A stretch of 53,100 bases of DNA from Candidatus Hydrogenedentota bacterium (GCA_030432675.1 JAUIMA010000001.1:1-53100), one strand, 5' to 3'. Numbered from the stretch's first letter, positions 8,912 to 48,945 are shown. Numbers and translations are program-made. Notes: generated from the letters alone by a model not told the origin.

Positions 8912-10333
8912 TTATTTTTTCTTAGGGCGATAGATGTGGGTTGCGGTACCAAATACCGACGCGGCCGTTTCCATAACCGATTCACTCAAGGTCGGGTGGG
9001 GGTGAATGGTCAGGTCCAAATCGCTGACCAGCGCGCCCATCTCAATGGCGAGGGTACCTTCGGCAATCAGCTCACCGGCACCGGCACCTACGATACCCAT
9101 ACCCAACAGCTGTTCCGTTTCGGGGTCGGAAATAATCTTGGTCAACCCTTCGGTGCGGTTGATGGTCGTCGCACGACCGGATGCCGCCCAGGGGAAGCGT
9201 GCCACGTTAACTGCGCGGCCTTCTTGCTTGGCTTCTTCTTCCGTCAAACCACACCAGGCCACTTCGGGGTCGGTAAAGACCACCGCAGGGATCGCCTGGG
9301 GCTCAAAGGCTGCATTGTGTCCGGCGATGACTTCGGCGGCCACGCGCCCTTCGGCCGACGCCTTGTGGGCCAGCATGGCCCCACCCACGATATCGCCAAT
9401 TGCAAAGATATGCTCATCGGCCGTGCGCATCTGCTCGTCGACTTCGATGAAGCCCCGGTCGTTAACGACTACGCCCGTGCTCTTCAGGCCGAGACCGCTG
9501 GAATTGGGTTTCCGGCCGATGCTCACCAGCACCTTGTCAAAGACGCGGTTGGGCTTTTTGATACCTTCGCCTTCGAGGGTCACTTTGATGCCATTCTTCT
9601 GCTCTTTCATTTCGGCAATCTTGGTATTGAGCAGAATCTCTTTGAACTGACCTTCCAGACGGGCCTGCAGGGGCTTGACCAAATCGCGGTCCGCGCCGGG
9701 CAGGAGACCGGGCATCATTTCCACGCAGGTCACTTCGGAGCCCAACGCGGCATAGACGGTACCCAATTCCAACCCGATGTAACCACCGCCCACGAGGAGG
9801 AGGGATTCGGGAACGTCTTCCAACAGCAAGGCACCGGTGGAATTCATGATTCGATCGGTTTCGATCAAGGGGCCGAAACGGGCAGGACGGGAACCGGCAG
9901 CGATAATGGTGTATTCGGCGCTGAGCTTCACCTGCTTGCCATCGGCTTGCGTCACGACCAGGTTGGTGGAGTTCACAAAGTTACCACGGCCCTGGATGTA
10001 ATTAATCTTACGGGCATTCACAAGCTGACCAAGGCCACCGGTCATCTGCTCGACCACACCGGCCGTCGAGGCGCGAACGCGGTCCAGATCGATTTCGGGC
10101 TCGCCGTAGCTGAGGCCGAAGTAGGACGCCTCACGGGATTCATTGATTACCTTGGCCACATGCAAGAGGGCCTTGGAGGGGATGCACCCGCGATAAAGGC
10201 AGGTGCCGCCGGGGTTCTTTTCCACATCGATCAGGGTGACATCCAGCCCCAGATCAGCGGCCATAAAGGCGGCCGCATAGCCACCGGGTCCACCGCCCAG
10301 TACGGCAACTTGCGTGCTTTGTTCGCTACTCAT
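8912..10333 (-). CDS. lpdA: dihydrolipoyl dehydrogenase (E3)
   Basis: 473 aa. FAD motif GGGPGGYAAA. Redox-active disulfide GGTCLYRGCIPSKALL. Downstream of aceF. Confidence 0.95.
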   Translation of the reverse strand: MSSEQSTQVAVLGGGPGGYAAAFMAADLGLDVTLIDVEKNPGGTCLYRGCIPSKALLHVAKVINESREASYFGLSYGEPEIDLDRVRASTAGVVEQMTGGLGQLVNARKINYIQGRGNFVNSTNLVVTQADGKQVKLSAEYTIIAAGSRPARFGPLIETDRIMNSTGALLLEDVPESLLLVGGGYIGLELGTVYAALGSEVTCVEMMPGLLPGADRDLVKPLQARLEGQFKEILLNTKIAEMKEQKNGIKVTLEGEGIKKPNRVFDKVLVSIGRKPNSSGLGLKSTGVVVNDRGFIEVDEQMRTADEHIFAIGDIVGGAMLAHKASAEGRVAAEVIAGHNAAFEPQAIPAVVFTDPEVAWCGLTEEEAKQEGRAVNVARFPWAASGRATTINRTEGLTKIISDPETEQLLGMGIVGAGAGELIAEGTLAIEMGALVSDLDLTIHPHPTLSESVMETAASVFGTATHIYRPKKK

Positions 10334-10388
10334 GATTTATCCTCTTCCCCCGTCGGGGTTATGTTTTCTGCTGCTCCACCAGGGGCTA

Positions 10389-11741
10389 TCAGGATTCCAG
10401 AATCAACTTCCAGGGGTTTTCCAGGGCCTCGGCCACCCAACGCATGAAGCGGGCCGCATCGGCACCGTCGATGAGACGGTGGTCATAGGAAAGGCTCAGG
10501 GGAAGCATCGTCCGGGGAACCAGCTGTCCATTCTGGAAAACACCTTCCACGGCCGAACGGGACACCCCGAGGATGGCCACTTCCGGCGAGTTGATGATGG
10601 GCGTAAAGCCCGTTCCACCAAGACCACCCAGATTGCTGATGGTGAAGGTCGTGCCGGACATGTCTTCCAGCGTCAACTTGCGGTCCCGTGCTTTCTTGGC
10701 AATACCAGGAAGCTCCAGGGCCAATTCCTGCAGGCTCTTCTTGTCGACGTCGCGGATGGCGGGCACCAGCAGACCGGCCGGGGTATCCACCGCCACGCCG
10801 ATGTTGTAGTACTGCTTCAAGATGACCTGCTCGTTTTCGAGGTCGATGCTCGCATTAAACTTGGGAAAGCGGCGCAGCGCTTCGGTGATGACCTTCATCA
10901 AGAAGATGGTCACTGTCAGGCTTCCGCCCTCGGCCTTGATGGCGGGCGCATACTGCTTGCGGACCTGTTCCAGCGCTGTAATGTCGGCCTTCTCAAAGTG
11001 GGTCACATGGGGGATGGTCGTCCAGCAGTGGGTCATGTGGGCGGCGGTCTTTTTGCGGACACCGCTCATGCCATCGCGAACAATCTTACCCCAACGGTCG
11101 TCTTCCATGGCACCGGCCACGGCGGGTGCGGCGGAAGTTACCGGTACGGGTGCGGTCGTGGCAGCCGGAGCGGCGGAAGCCGATTCGCTGGCCGGGGGCG
11201 TGGCACCACTGGAGGAAGCGTAGGCTTCCACATCCTGGGCGGTAACGCGACCACTCGGATCCGACGTGGGCACGTCGGTCAATTGGACACCCAGGTTCCG
11301 CGCCAATTTGCGCACCGAAGGCGAGGCCAACACACGGCCGCCCACAGCGGGCTTTGCAGAAGGGGCCGCTTTGGGAGCGGGTTTCGCGGGTGCCGGGGCT
11401 GCCTTGGCTGCGGGCGCGGGCGCGGGTTTCGGAGCTTCCTTCTTCGCGGGCGCTTCTTTCTTCTCCGCCTTGGCAGCAGGCTTGGCTGACTCGCCACCAC
11501 CAGCCGACTCGTCGGCGACCAGAATAACCTGGCCCACACTCACGGCATCACCCACCTTGACGCGGATTTCCGTAATCTTGCCGCCAAAGGGAATGGGGAT
11601 TTCCGCCACGGCTTTGTCGGTTTCAATTTCGATGATGGACGTGTCGGCCGCCACGGTGTCACCCACCGAAGCCAGGAGGGTTGCCACGGTGCCCGAGGTA
11701 ACGCCCTCGCCCAATTCAGGCAATTTAAATTCTGTCGCCAT
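10389..11741 (-). CDS. aceF: dihydrolipoamide acetyltransferase (E2) of pyruvate dehydrogenase complex
   Basis: 450 aa. Lipoyl domain IETDKA. Ala/Pro-rich linkers. E3-binding domain ASPSVRKLARNLGV. Catalytic DHRLIDGA. Confidence 0.93.
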   Translation of the reverse strand: MATEFKLPELGEGVTSGTVATLLASVGDTVAADTSIIEIETDKAVAEIPIPFGGKITEIRVKVGDAVSVGQVILVADESAGGGESAKPAAKAEKKEAPAKKEAPKPAPAPAAKAAPAPAKPAPKAAPSAKPAVGGRVLASPSVRKLARNLGVQLTDVPTSDPSGRVTAQDVEAYASSSGATPPASESASAAPAATTAPVPVTSAAPAVAGAMEDDRWGKIVRDGMSGVRKKTAAHMTHCWTTIPHVTHFEKADITALEQVRKQYAPAIKAEGGSLTVTIFLMKVITEALRRFPKFNASIDLENEQVILKQYYNIGVAVDTPAGLLVPAIRDVDKKSLQELALELPGIAKKARDRKLTLEDMSGTTFTISNLGGLGGTGFTPIINSPEVAILGVSRSAVEGVFQNGQLVPRTMLPLSLSYDHRLIDGADAARFMRWVAEALENPWKLILES

Positions 11742-40911: not shown

Positions 40912-41790
40912 TTGGACAAATCAGAAGCAAAGAAGGTCTTTCGAGAGGCGGACACCCTCTACGAGCAGGGCCAATACGACGCGGCATTGCACCTGCTGCA
41001 ACGGTTGAACCGTGAATTCCCCCGTCAGAAGCACATCATGTATTCCGCCGCCCTCTGCCTGGAACAACTCGGCCGTGCCCAGGAATCCATCGCACTGTGC
41101 GAACAACTCATCGAACGCTTTCAGGATGACCGCGCCGAAATAATTCTCAGTCGCTTCGCCGGTGAAGAGGCCCCCGAGCCACCGGTCATCACCCCCAGTG
41201 GCTCACGGCGCCTCACGACCGATGACCGCCGTCTCATCGCCATGCTCATGCAGGACCCTGAAACCATGACGCCCCTGCCAGCACGCCGTGGGTCTGACCG
41301 CATTCTCCTTTACAGCATTGGCGTGATTGCCCTGGCATTGACTATCGTAATAGCGGCGGGTGCCTTTGTGTTTTACGCGCCCGGCGCGGGCCCATCCACG
41401 GGCATCTCCCTCAGCACCAACGGCGACACCCTCACCCTCGGGCAGGTCTTCGTCATTTTCCTGGCCACCAGCTTCGCCGCCAACACGGTGGCCATGTTCG
41501 TCCTGCTGGCCCTCATGGGACACCAGCGCTACGAGTCTCCGGTGGACAATGTCTTCGACGTCATGCAATATGCGTTCTACGTCAGTTTGCTCTTGTGCAT
41601 CCCCGTACTTGGCTGGATCGCCATCCCCCTTATGCTCCGACGACATTACTTTTTCCCCATGGGAGAACTCTTCCTCTTTCTCCTCCTGCAGACGGTCATG
41701 GCCACGGGCTTCGCCATTATCTTCGGAGCCATCATGCTACTCCTCGGATACGGCTGGGTATTCTCCAACCTCGCCGACGCGGCCGCCTGA
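40912..41790 (+). CDS. TPR-like N-terminal domain membrane protein (4-5 TM)
   Basis: 292 aa, TTG start in the track. The N-terminus ADTLYEQGQYDAALHLLQRLNREFPRQKHIMYSAALCLEQLG is TPR-like. The C-terminal half is hydrophobic. Paralogous to the N-terminus of 42144-42599. Confidence 0.65.
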   Translation: MDKSEAKKVFREADTLYEQGQYDAALHLLQRLNREFPRQKHIMYSAALCLEQLGRAQESIALCEQLIERFQDDRAEIILSRFAGEEAPEPPVITPSGSRRLTTDDRRLIAMLMQDPETMTPLPARRGSDRILLYSIGVIALALTIVIAAGAFVFYAPGAGPSTGISLSTNGDTLTLGQVFVIFLATSFAANTVAMFVLLALMGHQRYESPVDNVFDVMQYAFYVSLLLCIPVLGWIAIPLMLRRHYFFPMGELFLFLLLQTVMATGFAIIFGAIMLLLGYGWVFSNLADAAA

Positions 41791-42143
41791 CAAGGCCAGC
41801 TTATAGCACTACAAAGGTGCCGCCCTTACGGACGTGAGGTACGGGGACTGCCTCGACGTCGTCCACCCTGCCCCACGCATACCAACCCCGGGGCCAACGG
41901 GTCCCCCTACCCCCGTAACACGACCGCAACCGTCGGAGACGTCCCCCTCCCCATGACGCTCTGGTTCCTTCCAGAGGGGGACAGCCTCGCCTTCCGAGAT
42001 ACCGCCTCCTGAAAATGACAATGGTTGAACACCACAGTTTTTACCTTACTGCGTCGCGATTGAAGTCGAGGCAGTCCCCGGAAGTTGCGCCCCGTCCCGG
42101 CCTGTCGTATTATTTGGGGTGCGCACATCGCACGAGGATACTT

Positions 42144-42599
42144 ATGGAACGACATATCGCCCAGAATAAGTTCGGCCAGGCCGACCTCCTGTTCCAACAG
42201 GGACGTTTCGACGAATCCCTGTCGCTCTTGGATGAATTAGACCAGGCCTTTCCGAATTCACCCAACGTGATGTTTCCCCGGGCACGGTGTCTTCTGGAGA
42301 TTGGGGAGACCAACGAGGCCCTCGACATCCTTGATGAATTGGCGCTCCAGCACCAACATCAGGAAGCCATCGAGCTCAAGAGTGAAGTCGCCGATGCCCT
42401 CATCACCCTGACCCAGCCGGTTCAATCGGAGGCCCGTCACCGGGATGGCCCTACACCGGATCAGGTAAAGGCCGCACGGTCATCCAGTCACGCGGGCAGT
42501 GTGCCGGAGATTACCGGCAACCGGATAGTCTTCGTGGTGGTTGGATTAGGCTTGCTGATCGTGTTGCTGGGCATCGTGCTCGTGGTGGTCGCCCAATAA
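42144..42599 (+). CDS. TPR-like N-terminal domain protein with single C-terminal TM
   Basis: ORF 42015-42599. ATG 42144 is preceded by GAGGA. ADLLFQQGRFDESLSLLDELDQAFPNSPNVMFPRARCLLEIG aligns with 40912-41790. C-terminal TM IVFVVVGLGLLIVLLGIVLVVV. Confidence 0.65.
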   Translation: MERHIAQNKFGQADLLFQQGRFDESLSLLDELDQAFPNSPNVMFPRARCLLEIGETNEALDILDELALQHQHQEAIELKSEVADALITLTQPVQSEARHRDGPTPDQVKAARSSSHAGSVPEITGNRIVFVVVGLGLLIVLLGIVLVVVAQ

Positions 42600-42603
42600 G
42601 GGC

Positions 42604-44241
42604 CTACTGCACCATGGCCTTGATCGACTCAATGCGTTTCAGGTTGTCACGCACATCTTGCAACACAGCCTTCTCTTCTTCAAAGGCCAGTCGGGGGGCC
42701 AGAAAAGCCGCTTTCAAATCCTGCAAGCTTCCTTGACGGGCCATCCACGCCACAGACCGTATTGCGAATGAAAGTATGACCAACTCCACCGTTGTGATAA
42801 TGGCAAGTACCGTCGCCGAATGGATGAGAAACGACACGTCGAGAAATCGTGCCGCCAGGTAGGACTTCACGACGATAAAGGCGGTATAGCACAAGAAGGC
42901 CACGGGCGGCACATCGAGCAATACGGTCGTCAGCCACCGACTCAAACGCCGGGCACCGTTTTGAACCCGCTCCCGGGCGGGCCCCTTGATCACCGAGACC
43001 AGCCGCCGGTCCAATTCCTGCTGAAAGGCCAACTCTCCCGCCCCCTCGCGCACCTCAATACCGGCGCGAACAAAGGTCAGGGCCAGCTCGCTCTGCTGGG
43101 TGCGGTAATATTCCAAGACCCGCTCGGGTGCGATGGTCTCCTCATGGGGCATCAAATCATCGCTGGTCAGTAGCTCCGCCGCGCGACGTCCATCGCTGTT
43201 CTTCAGTCCCGCCAACGACAGAAAGCTCGGCATCCGCATGGGCAGACTGCGGAGCGCATCCAAGACGCGATAACAAATCCCTATATACCCTTTGGAGCGC
43301 ACGCTCGTCTCACGACCCACGGCATAGGTCCAGAGATGGGGTTCGGCGAAAAGGTGGTCACTCACAAAGCCCAGGCTTTCCCGGGCGAGTGCCTTGTCCG
43401 ACGCTTGAATTCCCTTTTCCAGGTCGGCGAGGGCGGGCCTGATTTCCTCCGCAATCTCATCGAGGCGCTGTGTCGCCTTCTGGAGGAGTCCCGCCACGTT
43501 GGACCGCTTGATCCGGGCAATACGCTCGCGGTTCAACTCCTGCCGCAAGAACTGGTCCAGCGCCGGCCCATCGTATTCCTCTTCCTCGGGCTTGCCACCG
43601 GCCATCTTGCGATCCAGCGTGCGCAGGGCGTTTACCCGAAAGTAAGGCCCCGTCTCAAAGCCCTGATCCTTCAGCCGCTCCAGCCAGTGCTCTTTAACCG
43701 AAGGCTGGGGACCCGCTTTGGTCTCCACGCAAATCATGGCGCGCTGCCCACGAAGGGGACGCAACAAGGACCACGAGGCTTCGTCCAGATACTTCTCCGT
43801 GCTCGCGCACAATACGATTAAATCGCATTGCTTTAAGACCTCTACGGTGCGCTCCCGGTGGATATGAGCGATGCTGTCCGAGTCGGGCGTATCAATGAGC
43901 ACAAGGTGTTCCAGCGCCGACCGGGGCACCCCCTCCCATTCATGGAAGGGCAATTCTGTTCCGGGCGGGTGATAGGCCATGGGCTTGGTGGTACAGGGGC
44001 GCATGGCCGACGTCAGGGCAATCTGGTCGCCTGCAATGGCATTGAGCAGGGTCGACTTTCCCACACCAGAGCCGCCCACCAGGGCCACCACCAGAACATC
44101 GTCCAGGCGGGCCTCGCGGGTCTGTAACTCGTTGACCCGCTCCCGAAGACGGGCCGTCTCCTGACGGAGGGCTTTCCAGGGGCCGTCATAGTCGGCCAGG
44201 GCTTCCAGGTGCTCGAGGACGTTTAAGATACTGTCAGACAC
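42604..44241 (-). CDS. membrane-anchored P-loop GTPase (dynamin-like?), partner B
   Basis: 545 aa. G1 GGSGVGKST, G3 LIDTPD, degenerate G4 ETKAG. Long helical middle. Two C-proximal TM segments (TTVLLDVPPVAFLCYTAFIVV and FLIHSATVLAIITTVELVILSFAI). Its start overlaps the upstream gene by 19 nt. Confidence 0.78.
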   Translation of the reverse strand: MSDSILNVLEHLEALADYDGPWKALRQETARLRERVNELQTREARLDDVLVVALVGGSGVGKSTLLNAIAGDQIALTSAMRPCTTKPMAYHPPGTELPFHEWEGVPRSALEHLVLIDTPDSDSIAHIHRERTVEVLKQCDLIVLCASTEKYLDEASWSLLRPLRGQRAMICVETKAGPQPSVKEHWLERLKDQGFETGPYFRVNALRTLDRKMAGGKPEEEEYDGPALDQFLRQELNRERIARIKRSNVAGLLQKATQRLDEIAEEIRPALADLEKGIQASDKALARESLGFVSDHLFAEPHLWTYAVGRETSVRSKGYIGICYRVLDALRSLPMRMPSFLSLAGLKNSDGRRAAELLTSDDLMPHEETIAPERVLEYYRTQQSELALTFVRAGIEVREGAGELAFQQELDRRLVSVIKGPARERVQNGARRLSRWLTTVLLDVPPVAFLCYTAFIVVKSYLAARFLDVSFLIHSATVLAIITTVELVILSFAIRSVAWMARQGSLQDLKAAFLAPRLAFEEEKAVLQDVRDNLKRIESIKAMVQ

Positions 44242-45995
44242 TGCGTGTGAATCCTTCGAAGGGTCTCCGCCGCCTCACTATCGAGGGCCGCACGGCCTTC
44301 CGCAAGCGGCACGAGGGCCGCCTCTAAAATGTGTTCATGGAGCGCCCGCTCAAATCGGGCCTGCTGTTCTTTGTGCCAGGGCGCCATGAGGTCCACCCAC
44401 TTGTCGGCAAACTGGTGCTCCAGCACCCGGGAGAAAAATTCCCCGGCCAAGGGGCTCGTCGCCGCCACCACTTCCGGAACGCCCACCCCGCCCGAATAGA
44501 CCGCCAGGGGCAAGGCCACCGCCGTGGGTGCGAGCATGAGCATGGCATCCAACTGCACCAGAAAAAGACGGCGCATCTTATTGTCATTCCACCATTCATC
44601 CAGCGTCTTCTCCGCATGGGCACGGAACGCATCCGAAATATTGTCGTCCACCAACGTCGCCGCCTCGACGGCCGCCACCACCTCGGTGACCTCCAGGGCC
44701 TCGAATCGTTTGGCGACCATGTCCCGGGCAGGCTGATCGAGATGCTCCGCCAGCTCGACACAGTCCCGGATGAAATCCCGGGTGCGGATGGACAACTCGC
44801 GTGCGTGGTAGGAGCGCAGTTCATCGGCCGTGGGCGGTTTCTTCGCCGAAGTGAGCGTCAGCCGACTGCGCACCATCTCGCCCAGCGAACGCCCCACATA
44901 GCTCACCCCATCCACCGCGGCCGCACCCACCTTACCCACCGTACGGCTTACGGCACCACGGCGGGCCTTGATGTGGTTGTGAAGCAGTTTGCCAACTTGC
45001 GCACCAGGCTCTGGATCATAGCTCTGCGCCACGGCCTCGGCGCGGTGCTCAAACAGCTTTGACACCCCGTCGAAACTCTTGGCAAAGTCATCGAGACGTG
45101 CCACAAATTCTTCGGTGTGTCCCGTGAAGTGTTTCAGCGTATCCCGATAGACCCGGTCTTTCGTGTCGACCACATCCATCTGTTCCAGGTAAGCGCGCAG
45201 GGGCTCCGTATCGCTGAGAGAAGCGATGCGGTGATCACAGGATTCCATGAGGGTAAAATCGTGGGGCACCACGAAAAATGTGCGCTCTTCGATACCGACG
45301 GATTGGCAAAAGTCTTCCAGCTGTGCCCGTGCCACTTCAAAATCCTGGGCGTCGTTGGCCTTATTCATCAGCGGCAGAATTACACGTCCCGAATCGGCGG
45401 CCTGACGAAAATAGGCGATGACCTGTTCATCCTGATACTTTTCCCCGGTTAACACGGCAATCAGCACATCACAGACCGCCTGAATGTTTTCTGCCACATC
45501 CCAATTAATGAGATCGATAGAATCCACATCGGGCACATCCAGCAACACCATGTGATCGGGCAGTCCTTCACAGGCTTTCATAAAGAGGGTGTCGGGCGCC
45601 GCGCTCCGGTCGATGGGGTCGGTGTCGTGGGCCTGAAAGCGCGCCTGAAGTCCCGGAACCAGGTTGCCCGCCACACCCTGGTCGAAGCGATGCTGATTGC
45701 CAACCAACAAGGGCCGACACGTCGCCGCAGCCGTCGCCCGCACGGGACTTAGTTCGGCCCCGGCGAGGAGATTGAAAACCGTAGATTTACCGGTATTAGT
45801 CCCCCCCGCCACTGCGGCAACGAGCACATCCTTTCCCGCCAACTGGGGAAGGAGCTTGAAGGTCAACAACTTGCGCCATTCGCCGGTATCTTTGAACAGG
45901 GCCCCATGGAGCGCGGGCTGTGATTCCAACGCCGAATCCAACGTGCGCAGGGCCGTGTCGAAGACTTCCAGATCGTGATTCAAGGCATCATCCAT
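44223..45995 (-). CDS. P-loop GTPase with hydrophobic C-proximal segment (dynamin-like?), partner A
   Basis: 590 aa. G1 GGTNTGKST, G3 LLDVPD, G4-like LMNKAND. Helical stalk-like region. Hydrophobic LFLVQLDAMLMLAPTAVALPLAVY. Confidence 0.78.
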   Translation of the reverse strand: MDDALNHDLEVFDTALRTLDSALESQPALHGALFKDTGEWRKLLTFKLLPQLAGKDVLVAAVAGGTNTGKSTVFNLLAGAELSPVRATAAATCRPLLVGNQHRFDQGVAGNLVPGLQARFQAHDTDPIDRSAAPDTLFMKACEGLPDHMVLLDVPDVDSIDLINWDVAENIQAVCDVLIAVLTGEKYQDEQVIAYFRQAADSGRVILPLMNKANDAQDFEVARAQLEDFCQSVGIEERTFFVVPHDFTLMESCDHRIASLSDTEPLRAYLEQMDVVDTKDRVYRDTLKHFTGHTEEFVARLDDFAKSFDGVSKLFEHRAEAVAQSYDPEPGAQVGKLLHNHIKARRGAVSRTVGKVGAAAVDGVSYVGRSLGEMVRSRLTLTSAKKPPTADELRSYHARELSIRTRDFIRDCVELAEHLDQPARDMVAKRFEALEVTEVVAAVEAATLVDDNISDAFRAHAEKTLDEWWNDNKMRRLFLVQLDAMLMLAPTAVALPLAVYSGGVGVPEVVAATSPLAGEFFSRVLEHQFADKWVDLMAPWHKEQQARFERALHEHILEAALVPLAEGRAALDSEAAETLRRIHTQCLTVS

Positions 45996-46034
45996 AGACG
46001 TGAACCCGTAGAATGGGGCGGGTGGAGCAGGCCA

Positions 46035-46217
46035 TCAGCCCAGCCACATACCTTTGGTAAGAAAAAGGAGCCAAAGCACTCCGAAAATTGTAAACAGAAT
46101 GGAGAATTTGATGAGCTTCTGCTTGAATTCCGGATCCCGCTGAAATTTACACGTGGGGCACGGCGCTGACGGATCTTCGATTACTTGCCCGCATCCGGGG
46201 CACTGTATGGGAGCCAT
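46035..46217 (-). CDS. zinc-ribbon membrane peptide
   Basis: 60 aa. CPGC-x12-CPTC followed by TM IKFSILFTIFGVLWLLFL. Ends 39 nt upstream of GTPase A on the same strand. Confidence 0.55.
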   Translation of the reverse strand: MAPIQCPGCGQVIEDPSAPCPTCKFQRDPEFKQKLIKFSILFTIFGVLWLLFLTKGMWLG

Positions 46218-46377
46218 GGTATGATTGCCTTCCTTACTTCCGATACCGAAGGGAGCGGGTCTACAGGCCGCTCCTCCAACGGCGTAACCGCCCTATCATA
46301 CGTGATCGGCACGGGCTCAGAAAAACAGTCGCCCACTTATTCTCCGTTCTCCCACCCATTTCACCGTCGAGCGCCCC

Positions 46378-47262
46378 CTATTCGCGGAGGACGCCTTGGT
46401 CCATTGTATGCACCACGGTGGTCCTGTAATCTCTGATTTGCGATGCGATATGCCGGGCAGATGCCTCGTCGGCGCAAAGTCCAAACACGGTAGGACCGCT
46501 ACCACTCATGGCACTCGCAAGACAGCCTGACGCCATCAGTTGCGCCTTGATCACGCCCAACTCCGGGTGATCACAGAGCACACCCGACTCCATGCGATTG
46601 AAAATAACATCGGCCACCTGGCCCGCCGCGAGTCCCGAGAGCGCCGCGTTAAAGGCCGGGGTTTTCCCATTCACGGGGGCCATCACGTTTCGGGTTAACT
46701 GGGGGTGGCCATAGGCGTGCCCTGCCGTCACGGCCAGGGGGGGGTGGACCAATACCAGCCAATGGGTGGGCAGGGGGGGCAATGGCGTCATCACTTCTCC
46801 CCGCCCCGTTGCGGCGACCGTGCCACCGAGGACACAAAAGGGGACGTCAGACCCCAACTCCAATGCCAACTCACAGAGTTTGTGGACATCCCACCCGAGA
46901 GACCACAGGTCATTCAGCGCAATCAAGGTCGCGGCGGCATTTCCGGAGCCGCCCGCCAACCCGGCCGCAATGGGCAAGTTTTTCTCCAAGTGAATCTTCA
47001 CGCCGTCGGGGAGGCCCGTCTGCGCCTTCACCAGCGCGGCAGCGCGATAGACCAGGTTATCCGCCCCTCCACCCAGCGTGTCATCACTGCAGGTCAGTTG
47101 GATTCCCGATGAATGGGGCGCTACCACCAGGCGGTCATAGAGGTTGATGGACTGAAGCACCGTCTCGATATCGGTGAAACCGTCGGAACGACGGGACAGG
47201 ACATCGAGATAGAGATTTATTTTCCCATAAGAACGGTAGGACAAGACCGACACGACACGCAC
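46378..47262 (-). CDS. ispE: 4-(cytidine 5'-diphospho)-2-C-methyl-D-erythritol kinase
   Basis: 294 aa. N-terminus YGKINLYLDVLSRRSDGF. GHMP kinase motif PIAAGLAGGSGNAAATL. Confidence 0.9.
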   Translation of the reverse strand: MRVVSVLSYRSYGKINLYLDVLSRRSDGFTDIETVLQSINLYDRLVVAPHSSGIQLTCSDDTLGGGADNLVYRAAALVKAQTGLPDGVKIHLEKNLPIAAGLAGGSGNAAATLIALNDLWSLGWDVHKLCELALELGSDVPFCVLGGTVAATGRGEVMTPLPPLPTHWLVLVHPPLAVTAGHAYGHPQLTRNVMAPVNGKTPAFNAALSGLAAGQVADVIFNRMESGVLCDHPELGVIKAQLMASGCLASAMSGSGPTVFGLCADEASARHIASQIRDYRTTVVHTMDQGVLRE

Positions 47263-47271
47263 TCCAAACGA

Positions 47272-48945
47272 CTAAAACTTCCGTGTCCACAAAATCGAAA
47301 TTACCAGAACACTACCCAGCAGGCCAGCGAAAACAAAGCCCGCCACGCCCAATCGACTGATGGTCGATTCGGTCGTAATCAGCAAACTGGACCCAACGAT
47401 AAGAGCGGCCACAATCATGCCCACCGTATTTCGGCTGCTCGCCCGATCAATGGTCGCGGCGAGATCATCCAGGTGCTCGTGATGAATTGAGAACTTAAGC
47501 TTTCCTTTGCGCAATTGCTGCAGAAGCTGGGCAATATCCCGGGGCAACTGATGGCCCAGACGTAAGAGCACCCGGGTATTGTGCTTCGCGTCACGAAACA
47601 ACTGCCGGGGGGCATAGCGCCGCTTGATGAGCCGCTCCACATAGGGCTGAATAATGGGCACCATGTCCAGATTGGGGTCAAGGCCCCGCCCCACCATCTC
47701 AATCGTCGCCAGCGCCTTGATAAGCAATGAAAATCGCGGGGCCAATTCCATGTTTGCCCGCTGCAAAATCTGCGTCGTCCGCTCCAGCCCTCGCGCCACC
47801 TGCCCCCCGCCGAGAATGGCGCGAGCCTCAAAGGCGATAAACTCCGTGAGCTCTCGCTCCAACACATCCTGGTCGGCGGGCTCGCCCCCCGTCGTCAATA
47901 GCAGAATGGCATCCACGCAAGCCCGGCTGTCCCGCTCAAAAAGGGCGAGGAACAAATCTCCGATGGCAGCCACATCGCTCTGCTCCAGGTGACCCGCCAT
48001 CCCCAAATCGATAAAGGCCAGGTGATTGTCCTGGGTCACGAAGATGTTGCCCGGATGGGGATCGGCATGAAAAAGCTGGAACTCGAAGACCATGCGACAG
48101 AGGGCGTCACAGCCGTTAATCGCGACCTGCTCTGGCGTGCAATTGCGCTCGGGAAAGGACGCCACCTGATCCACGCGCACCCCGTCCACCCAGTCCATGG
48201 TGAGCAAGGTATGGCCCGAAAACTCCGGGTATACCTGGGGCATATCCACCGCGCCGTCGTCTTCAAAGTTAGTCCGGAACTGCTCGATAACCCGGGCCTC
48301 AATGCTCAAGTCGAGCTCACGCCGGATGGAGCGGGCGAATTCATCCACAATGCCCGGTGGGTCAAGCCAATTGATATCGTCCAGATGCTCGGCGCTCCAT
48401 TCGGCCACCTGGCGCATGAGGCTCAGGTCCGACTCGATAATCTTTTCCACACCGGGACGCTGGATCTTCACCACGACCTGTTGGCCGTCAAAGAGCGTGG
48501 CCCGATAGACCTGACTCAGCGAGGCCGATGCAATGGGCGTGGTGTCGAAGGTGGCGAAAAGTTCGGCACACGACTTACCCAGGGCCGCCTTGACGACCCC
48601 ATCCATCGTTTCGAAGGGGAGGGCATCCACCCGGTCCTGCAGATTGCTGAGCTCCCGTGCTGTCTCAAGCCGAATCAGATCGGGCCGGGTGCTCAGGATT
48701 TGACCGAGCTTCACAAAGGTGGGGCCCAGTTCCACCAGGGCTGAACGCATTCGCTGCCCGAAATTATGGGGAGGGCCCGGGGTAGCTTCCATGAGCTTGA
48801 GGCTGCGCAGTAACTTTGCCGGCAGGCTGCGATGAAACCCGGCCCGTTGCAACAGATCGGCAAAGCCGTGCTTCACGAACACCTGAAGCACTTCCGCCAG
48901 ACGTACGGCGTTTACCGTCTGTTTTCCAAGCCGGGAATAGTGCAC
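47272..48945 (-). CDS. ubiB: ABC1/UbiB-family atypical kinase
   Basis: 557 aa. ASLSQVYRA, FHADPHPGNIFV and IDLGMAG motifs. C-terminal TM segments. The symbol denotes the family only; the physiological role is not established here. Confidence 0.85.
   Translation of the reverse strand: MHYSRLGKQTVNAVRLAEVLQVFVKHGFADLLQRAGFHRSLPAKLLRSLKLMEATPGPPHNFGQRMRSALVELGPTFVKLGQILSTRPDLIRLETARELSNLQDRVDALPFETMDGVVKAALGKSCAELFATFDTTPIASASLSQVYRATLFDGQQVVVKIQRPGVEKIIESDLSLMRQVAEWSAEHLDDINWLDPPGIVDEFARSIRRELDLSIEARVIEQFRTNFEDDGAVDMPQVYPEFSGHTLLTMDWVDGVRVDQVASFPERNCTPEQVAINGCDALCRMVFEFQLFHADPHPGNIFVTQDNHLAFIDLGMAGHLEQSDVAAIGDLFLALFERDSRACVDAILLLTTGGEPADQDVLERELTEFIAFEARAILGGGQVARGLERTTQILQRANMELAPRFSLLIKALATIEMVGRGLDPNLDMVPIIQPYVERLIKRRYAPRQLFRDAKHNTRVLLRLGHQLPRDIAQLLQQLRKGKLKFSIHHEHLDDLAATIDRASSRNTVGMIVAALIVGSSLLITTESTISRLGVAGFVFAGLLGSVLVISILWTRKF

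Follow-up and report, generated by a model that had tools for sequence, protein, structure and literature searches.

A probable, remote DynA/DynB-type pair of dynamin-like GTPases with an Asp-for-Gly switch II motif in Candidatus Hydrogenedentota

A 53,100-nucleotide stretch of DNA from a Candidatus Hydrogenedentota bacterium (GCA_030432675.1 JAUIMA010000001.1:1-53100, hereafter the window) encodes on its minus strand two adjacent GTPases, A (590 aa) and B (545 aa), which are preceded by a 60-aa peptide, Z. Our analysis places A and B as a remote new member of the known DynA/DynB-type pairs of dynamin-like proteins (DLPs). Their closest characterized relatives are DynA and DynB of Streptomyces rather than the bacterial dynamin-like protein BDLP, IniA, or LeoA, and the two probably constitute a heterotypic bacterial dynamin-like pair of the DynA/DynB type. 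To our knowledge, bacterial dynamin-like pairs are poorly understood, and work on the DynA/DynB type is limited to Streptomyces, where the pair is described as a peculiarity of filamentous actinobacteria. A preliminary description of the locus had reported three co-directional genes of these sizes, their GTPase motifs, and a 19-nt overlap between A and B, all of which the list of open reading frames (ORFs) and re-translation confirmed. It had further proposed a tandem bacterial dynamin-like pair, and this proposal is borne out by full-length Foldseek matches to BDLP, IniA, Cj-DLP1/2, Drp1, OPA1, and mitofusin.

Predicted fold and membrane segments

Models of A and B were produced with AlphaFold2 (AF2) from alignments of 63-64 sequences and had mean predicted local distance difference test (pLDDT) values of 82.8 and 81.7, respectively. 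In both models, N-terminal helices lead into the GTPase domain, after which come the long helical neck and trunk, a hydrophobic element placed near the tip, and returning C-terminal helices. The features that mark the dynamin superfamily, namely a large GTPase domain, a helical neck/trunk bundle, and C-terminal helices that run back towards the GTPase domain, are thus all predicted for both proteins. When the models were compared with the PDB by Foldseek, A matched BDLP (2j68, E = 2e-10) and also Drp1, Cj-DLP1/2, OPA1, and IniA, while B matched IniA (6j72, E = 9e-11) and BDLP (2j69, E = 6e-10) and also Cj-DLP1/2, Drp1, and mitofusin. The top 50 PDB matches were dynamin-superfamily or closely related large GTPases, with a probability of 1.00 and 600-700 aligned columns. 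The best TM-scores were obtained with the compact mitofusin constructs (0.38-0.39 when normalized to the query and 0.51-0.52 when normalized to the target, with a root mean square deviation of ~6 Å).

Searches by sequence returned only generic P-loop matches for A and B from Pfam, NCBIfam, and PADLOC (MMR_HSR1, and Dynamin_N over the P-loop), and no NCBIfam cut-off was reached. The equivalog model of Bacillus DynA (DynmDynABac) gave 15.5 and 18 bits against a cut-off of 1600, and that of Escherichia coli CrfC gave 18.9 bits against a cut-off of 1146. Likewise, profile searches of the PDB sequences hit P-loop stretches only, and no solved homologue was detectable by sequence. It is the predicted structure that is decisive in identifying A and B as dynamin-like. 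Names under which such proteins are stored in databases ("50S ribosome-binding GTPase", "SAR1 family") would instead make A and B ribosome-associated or other small TRAFAC GTPases, and the top sequence-level matches are indeed the P-loop regions of MMR_HSR1, Era, EngA, and HydF. However, these matches span ~30-130 residues around the P-loop and lie far under the curated cut-offs, whereas the other ~350 residues make up a helical stalk and include membrane segments, and the full-length structural matches are exclusively to the dynamin superfamily, which makes such an identity exceedingly improbable. The claim that A and B are paralogous stands in part, as hhalign relates the two proteins over their GTPase domains and first stalk helices but no further (98.4%, E = 5e-15, 219 columns).

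Membrane association had also been anticipated in the preliminary description, and hydropathy supports it for both proteins. In B, two strong C-terminal transmembrane (TM) segments are predicted within residues 440-494, at 440-458 and 476-494, with hydropathy peaks of 2.10 and 2.31; both are kept in the family profile, and the AF2 model has helices at 436-462 and 469-513 in this region (pLDDT 85-92). In A, the candidate membrane element is one moderately hydrophobic helix-turn-helix at residues 477-510, likewise conserved, whose Kyte-Doolittle maximum is 1.88 and which reaches 1.7 at 481-499 in the family mean. AF2 models it as helices 473-488 and 490-501 followed by a low-confidence loop.

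Nucleotide site and relationship to Streptomyces DynA/DynB

The G1 motif is canonical in A and B, and a candidate G2 Thr is present. The P-loop GGTN[TI]GKS of the upstream gene is common to A and the pairs of Planctomycetota. Textbook GTPases carry a Gly at the switch II position; in A and B, the DxxG of G3 has Asp in place of this Gly. The resulting D-x-P-D motif was found in 119/119 sampled family members, 108/119 of which have the extended form DxPDxD[ST]. Of the 150 top-ranked cluster representatives, 115 are full-length, and the motif occupies switch II/Walker B in 112 of these. In the AF2 model of B, DTPDSDS comes after strand E113-117, which is the canonical beta3 position. The preliminary description had quoted the DVPD and DTPD motifs correctly and had missed their status as a fixed hallmark of the family. 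Its remark that the G4 motifs are degenerate holds, since the specificity Asp of N/TKxD is missing within Hydrogenedentota from B (TKA-x) and from most A homologues (NKAN), in which the fourth position is N in 45/63 and D in 11/63 sequences. Many relatives in other phyla retain NKxD.

It has been stated that G1 GxxxxGKS/T, G2 T, G3 DxxG, and G4 N/TKxD are common to all (B)DLPs (PMC5827413). The DynA/DynB pairs of the Streptomyces type show an equal G3 deviation. Because these pairs carry DxPD, the DxxG generalization breaks down even for an accepted DLP pair, and we do not treat DxxG as strictly defining. We found no description of an Asp-for-Gly switch II (DxPD) in the literature, nor any relevant work on dynamins of planctomycetes. 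Together with the missing G4 Asp in Hydrogenedentota, this substitution suggests a modified catalytic or switch mechanism, possibly with relaxed nucleotide specificity.

In Streptomyces, DynA and DynB are a dynamin-like pair of the sporulation septum (Schlimpert et al. 2017), according to PMC8748795, PMC6104087, and bioRxiv 10.1101/2025.06.23.661029. The P-loop mutant of DynA is K74A (bioRxiv 10.1101/2025.06.23.661029), DynB has two transmembrane segments (PMC8748795), and heterotypic pairing is the rule among bacterial DLPs (PMC6104087). Five Streptomyces-like genomes (7.5-9.2 Mb, 71-75% GC, 5-7 SsgA-family genes each, the SsgA family being present in 0/14 controls) each contain one tandem pair, whose members are the sole strong matches to the B profile (E <= 1e-20). 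The first gene of this pair (GSTGAGKS...DAPDIDS) has a conserved start, MVTLD..., and its P-loop Lys is residue 74 in 5/5 genomes, while the second gene (GATGSGKS...DLPDHDS) encodes two C-terminal TM helices. We read the pair as DynA/DynB because Lys74 matches the K74A mutant of DynA and the two TM helices match DynB. The best blastp match of A within the pair was the first gene (28% over 230 aa, E = 1e-14) and that of B was the second (36% over 130 aa, E = 5e-15).

The trees agree with this correspondence. In a tree of 119 rows, one branch (SH-aLRT 96) parts the upstream genes and the DynA-like proteins from the downstream genes and the DynB-like proteins. A second tree, built from 26 pairs that represent seven or more phyla, has the same single split (UFBoot 92/SH-aLRT 94; 94% of bootstrap trees). 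Within each half of the tree, the Hydrogenedentota proteins are sister to those of Planctomycetaceae/Pirellulales, and the Streptomyces-type proteins are sister to those of Chloroflexota. Since a single split parts upstream from downstream genes, the duplication is ancient with gene order kept, and A and B are remote orthologues of DynA and DynB, respectively. As judged from these trees, the A/B duplication is older than the divergence of at least seven phyla. Orthology to a characterized housekeeping GTPase pair, which the preliminary description had named as an argument against its proposal, is thus found in a remote form, through DynA/DynB.

Comparing A/B with Streptomyces DynA/DynB, both are encoded by adjacent co-directional genes, the upstream product having no TM hairpin and the downstream one being anchored by two TM helices in its C-terminal part. 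In both members, D-x-P-D-x-D-S replaces DxxG, as read for Streptomyces from the Streptomyces-type genomes, and the P-loop Lys is residue 70 in A and 74 in DynA. However, DynB is extended at its N terminus by a long stretch that B lacks (P-loop Lys at 129 versus 62), and A bears a hydrophobic paddle-like segment. The bacteria also differ: the host is a Hydrogenedentota bacterium, which is probably diderm because the window encodes a secretin/Wza-type outer-membrane pore, and relatives of the pair live in FtsZ-less bacteria.

Cj-DLP1/Cj-DLP2 of Campylobacter jejuni (PDB 5owv/5oxf; PMC6104087) is a heterotypic, operon-encoded BDLP-class pair with full-length Foldseek matches to A and B (E = 3e-8 to 3e-7) and is the expected model for heterotypic G-dimerization and membrane tethering. 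It differs in that its sequence relationship to A and B is undetectable past the P-loop, it has DxxG according to the published generalization (PMC5827413), it binds membranes peripherally, and Cj-DLP1 contains a Campylobacter-specific assembly domain. Nostoc punctiforme BDLP1 (2j68/2j69), the best structural match for A and the second-best for B, shares with A/B the GTPase-neck-trunk-paddle topology and tandem genes, as do the cyanobacterial Tandem A and Tandem B clades (PMC5827413). It differs in that it has no TM hairpin but a transient paddle, is longer (693 aa), and by sequence falls outside the DxPD family, its only PDB profile match being the P-loop (E = 6e-4). IniA/IniC (PDB 6j72; PMC6715688) is likewise a membrane-acting paired DLP of similar size, and IniA is the best structural match for B, but there is no sequence-level match, its genes belong to the drug-induced iniBAC operon, and its sequence is not of the DxPD family, so that it presumably has the canonical DxxG. 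Mitofusin/Fzo1 (PDB 5yew, 5gom, 9kfd) also combines a GTPase and helical bundle with a C-proximal TM hairpin and both termini on the same side; these are eukaryotic fusogens of the outer mitochondrial membrane, however, and the similarity is one of fold only.

Conservation of the pair, the locus, and the wider DxPD family

The homologues of A and B named in databases all come from metagenome-assembled genomes (MAGs) of Candidatus Hydrogenedentes/Hydrogenedentota. A and B are single-copy in the host genome and occur in 110/135 and 106/135 Hydrogenedentota genomes, respectively; the same genera are without both, and the few mismatches lie at contig ends. Identity tracks kinship, with 95% for the best homologue, 68-77% in the rest of the genus, and 40-50% across the order. 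The two genes are co-inherited and co-lost and are inherited vertically. Twenty Hydrogenedentota loci were examined with 8-kb flanks, and B lies downstream of A on the same strand in 20/20, usually with an overlap of about equal size. At the A/B junction, the overlap is 13-28 nt, mostly 19 nt, in relatives L024-L027, L030-L031, L039, and L040. An AAGGA Shine-Dalgarno-like sequence is located inside A, 11-12 nt upstream of the GTG start of B, and the arrangement indicates that A and B are translationally coupled. The flanks are conserved among close relatives only; elsewhere, the pair adjoins unrelated housekeeping genes (rpsL-rpsG-fusA, leuS, xth, ispE). The conserved unit is the A-B pair, that is, two genes. 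The sole exception to adjacency among the 20 loci is L043 (G134:C79, ~9790-11070), where ~1.3 kb between A and B contains a 253-aa same-strand ORF with a hydrophobic N terminus. A second, divergent B-type copy (32% identity) was seen on another contig of one Hydrogenedentota genome (G115:C58:214-1806).

The preliminary description had treated Z as part of a three-gene unit, and this was not upheld. Z consists of CPGC...CPTC followed by one hydrophobic helix, predicted to be a TM helix at residues 35-53, and its zinc-ribbon matches in Pfam are all sub-threshold. It was found in 8/8 genomes of the genus, each time directly upstream of A and with the four Cys and the TM helix invariant, in 0/6 other genomes of the same family, and elsewhere in the phylum as two marginal matches only (E = 7e-4 and 0.0099), which are not known to adjoin A. 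Z is a genus-restricted add-on. It might be supposed that Z-A-B forms an obligate three-component system with the zinc-ribbon/TM peptide as anchor or regulator of the GTPases, and the same-strand position of Z 39 nt upstream of A, kept in the whole genus together with the Cys and the TM helix, would fit this. However, Z is missing from all other genera, including same-family genomes in which ispE abuts A with no Z between them (locus L038), no third gene is conserved across phyla, and Z evolves faster than A (50-54% versus 68% identity in most of the genus), so that we hold such a system to be improbable. Z would rather be a recently acquired small membrane protein of the genus and at most an accessory factor.

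Z, A, and B are all real genes rather than chance ORFs: A and B because their full-length homologues number in the hundreds and hardly vary in length, and Z because its four invariant Cys and TM helix are kept in 8/8 genomes of the genus. Their coordinates and those of the motifs are given in Table 1.

Table 1 Features of the Z-A-B locus in the window. Motif coordinates were fixed by re-translation.
Feature	Coordinates	Strand	Evidence
Z, 60-aa zinc-ribbon (CxxC-x10-CxxC) and single-TM peptide	46035..46217	-	ORF
Gene A, DynA-like dynamin-like GTPase, 590 aa, upstream pair member	44223..45995	-	ORF, AF2, Foldseek, tree, blastp
Gene B, DynB-like dynamin-like GTPase, 545 aa, predicted C-terminal TM hairpin, downstream member	42604..44241	-	ORF, AF2, Foldseek, tree
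A stop/B GTG start overlap, 19 nt (putative translational coupling)	44223..44241	-	Re-translation
A G1/P-loop GGTNTGKST	45780..45806	-	Invariant in 63 homologues
A switch II/G3 variant DVPDVDS	45519..45539	-	D153, P155, D156, D158, S159 invariant
A G4 variant NKAND	45351..45365	-	N211, K212 invariant
A hydrophobic helix-turn-helix, residues 477-510, candidate membrane paddle	44466..44567	-	Hydropathy, AF2
B G1/P-loop GGSGVGKST	44050..44076	-	Invariant in homologues
B switch II/G3 variant DTPDSDS	43873..43893	-	D117, T118, P119, D120, D122 invariant in 64 homologues
B G4 remnant TKAGP, no specificity Asp	43708..43722	-	T174, K175 invariant, next positions variable
B predicted TM hairpin, TM1 residues 440-458, TM2 residues 476-494	42760..42924	-	Hydropathy, AF2

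On the minus strand, the order of genes is ubiB (47272-48945), ispE (46378-47262), a gap of 160 nt, Z, a gap of 39 nt, A, and B. A scan for promoters and terminators gave no signal exceeding shuffled expectation, and Rfam gave zero matches within 42000-47000, including the 160-nt ispE-Z spacer (46218-46377). The only candidate near this spacer is one weak sigma-70-like site at 46430-46403 (-), within the 3' end of ispE. On the other side, two paralogous genes with a tetratricopeptide repeat (TPR) head and a TM tail (40912-42599, +) converge on B, the stop of the second lying 4 nt from that of B. These TPR/TM genes were considered as partners of the GTPases and rejected, as they lie beside the pair only in loci of the same genus (L024-L026).

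Beyond Hydrogenedentota, an exhaustive search with the B profile retrieved 148 cluster representatives at E <= 1e-30, a number that rises to 1985 when the threshold is relaxed to E <= 1e-10. The shell outside the Hydrogenedentota orthologues consists of "hypothetical proteins" of 550-660 aa, and the named ones come from Verrucomicrobiota and Planctomycetota. In a breadth scan over species-representative genomes, relatives in Planctomycetota included the cultured Singulisphaera acidiphila DSM 18658, Gemmata, Fuerstiella, and Schlesneria, and others were found in Methylococcales, Granulosicoccaceae, Syntrophobacteraceae, Desulfobacterales, Chloroflexota/Limnocylindria, Actinomycetota, and one Chitinophagaceae MAG (Bacteroidota). 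A B-type gene is present in ~30% of the Planctomycetota genomes sampled (n = 201) and in 22% of those of Actinomycetota (n = 251). At most loci in other phyla, the gene of an upstream GTPase precedes, and usually overlaps, that of a GGTG[VT]GKS...D-x-P-D protein whose C-terminal part contains two TM helices. The P-loop of the upstream protein differs among lineages (GGTN[TI]GKS, GGTGTGKS, GPTGAGKS, and, in Gammaproteobacteria, GPTQxGKS), and apparent gammaproteobacterial singletons likewise have an upstream partner. Clustering of the neighbours at 100 loci identified no third gene conserved across phyla, only antisense shadow ORFs and lineage-local genes.

Some members of the wider family depart from this pattern. 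The GGTNTGKS/GGTGVGKS pair on the 5-kb contig of the Chitinophagaceae MAG (L116) nests within Planctomycetaceae clades in both halves of the tree and represents either horizontal transfer or a mis-binned contig. In three loci (L054 4285-5853, L077 4328-5881, L050 1369-3843), a same-strand ORF of ~520-820 aa without a recognizable P-loop or DxPD precedes the B-type gene of Pirellulales/Planctomycetaceae; it may be a degenerate pseudo-GTPase form of the DynA-like partner or an unrelated gene. Short DLPD-type GTPases (407-441 aa) without TM segments occur in MAGs of Acidimicrobiia and other Actinomycetota (L100 5773-7098, L102 1092-2315, L089 7406-8719) and look like a trimmed form of the family.

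Possible role of the pair

On the model of Cj-DLP1/2 (PMC6104087) and of DynAB in Streptomyces, B would be a permanent anchor in the cytoplasmic membrane with its GTPase domain and stalk in the cytoplasm, and A would be recruited by B in a ratio of roughly 1:1. Nucleotide binding would drive heterotypic assembly of the G domains and stalks at the inner membrane face, and hydrolysis would reset the complex. Such an A-B assembly could tether or stabilize strongly curved membrane. As for the physiological role, we tentatively favor a job at the closing division septum, by analogy with Streptomyces DynAB, over the repair of damaged membranes.

Several observations weigh against this reading of the pair as a whole. 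The Foldseek TM-scores are low (0.2-0.5), which we attribute to the different hinge states taken by the long helical domains. Identity of A and B to the Streptomyces-type proteins amounts to no more than 28-36% and does not reach beyond the GTPase domain, and the Streptomyces-type pair itself was recognized as DynA/DynB from indirect markers, namely genome size, GC content, SsgA-family copies, and Lys74 numbering, not from named sequences. The divisome proteins that DynB partners in Streptomyces, among them SepF2, SsgB, and SepX, are actinobacterial; SepF had no match in the host genome (SsgB and SepX were not searched for). Moreover, ~20% of Hydrogenedentota genomes, including whole genera, are without the pair and retain FtsZ, so that the pair is dispensable. 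Finally, no match to FtsZ was found in five planctomycetes that carry the pair, including the complete Singulisphaera genome, while 13/14 controls were positive; because the pair is present in these FtsZ-less bacteria, stabilization of the FtsZ ring is not the general activity of the family. The host assembly (94% complete, 710 contigs) likewise gave no match to ftsZ. The idea of FtsZ-less Hydrogenedentota was nevertheless rejected, as FtsZ is present in 130/135 genomes of the phylum, including 8/8 of the same genus, and the absence in the host assembly is almost certainly an assembly gap.

The pair might instead be a machine for surveillance and repair of membrane damage, like Bacillus subtilis DynA or mycobacterial IniA, that has no dedicated role in division. 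Lesions made by pore-formers, antibiotics, or phage would then be the sites where it clusters and where it seals or fuses the membrane. Repair roles of this kind have been described for DynA and IniA (PMC6104087, PMC8844932), the fold is best matched by IniA and BDLP, and both the dispensability of the pair in several genera and its presence in FtsZ-less planctomycetes fit such a function. However, the tree places A and B with DynA/DynB-type pairs, the B. subtilis DynA equivalog is unmatched (15-18 bits versus 1600), and stress-response genes are not conserved beside the pair. Repair is nonetheless the main alternative and only slightly less probable than a job at the septum. Since repair and action at the septum overlap in mechanism, the two differ in physiological role only.

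The preliminary description had also raised the possibility of a defence module. In its most concrete form, the unit would be an anti-phage module of the Eleos type (LeoA/LeoBC), and the zinc-ribbon peptide would be its third component. Tandem DLPs are indeed known in Eleos, and PADLOC reports weak matches of B to LeoBC (E = 2.7e-7) and LeoA (8.8e-7) and of A to LeoA (2e-3). However, these matches are confined to the N-terminal GTPase region around the P-loop (residues 23-171), the pair is single-copy and follows the species phylogeny, base composition is uniform over the window, the neighbours are housekeeping genes (ubiB-ispE) with no defence or mobile genes found among them, and Z is restricted to one genus. 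A defence island was rejected on the weak PADLOC matches, the vertical inheritance, and the housekeeping context, and an Eleos-type system is very unlikely.

Returning to the DynA/DynB-type assignment, the two-gene module is old and widespread, occurring in Hydrogenedentota, the PVC phyla, methanotrophic Gammaproteobacteria, Desulfobacterota, Chloroflexota, and Actinomycetota. For the window itself, the result is mostly a clean annotation: a DynA/DynB-like pair and a genus-specific small membrane zinc-ribbon protein. The interest lies with the family and not with the locus, in its breadth, its undescribed Asp-for-Gly switch II, and its FtsZ-less carriers. A bolder and rather unlikely extension is that the DxPD family is an ancient pan-bacterial DynA/DynB module with a catalytic or switch mechanism unlike that of any studied dynamin and a core part in an FtsZ-independent step of division or envelope constriction. 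The mechanism would be, for example, a side-chain-assisted cation/water site or relaxed nucleotide specificity. An FtsZ-independent membrane step, if true, would explain the persistence of the pair in FtsZ-less planctomycetes. The family bears on how DLP pairs work and on what their ancestral function was.

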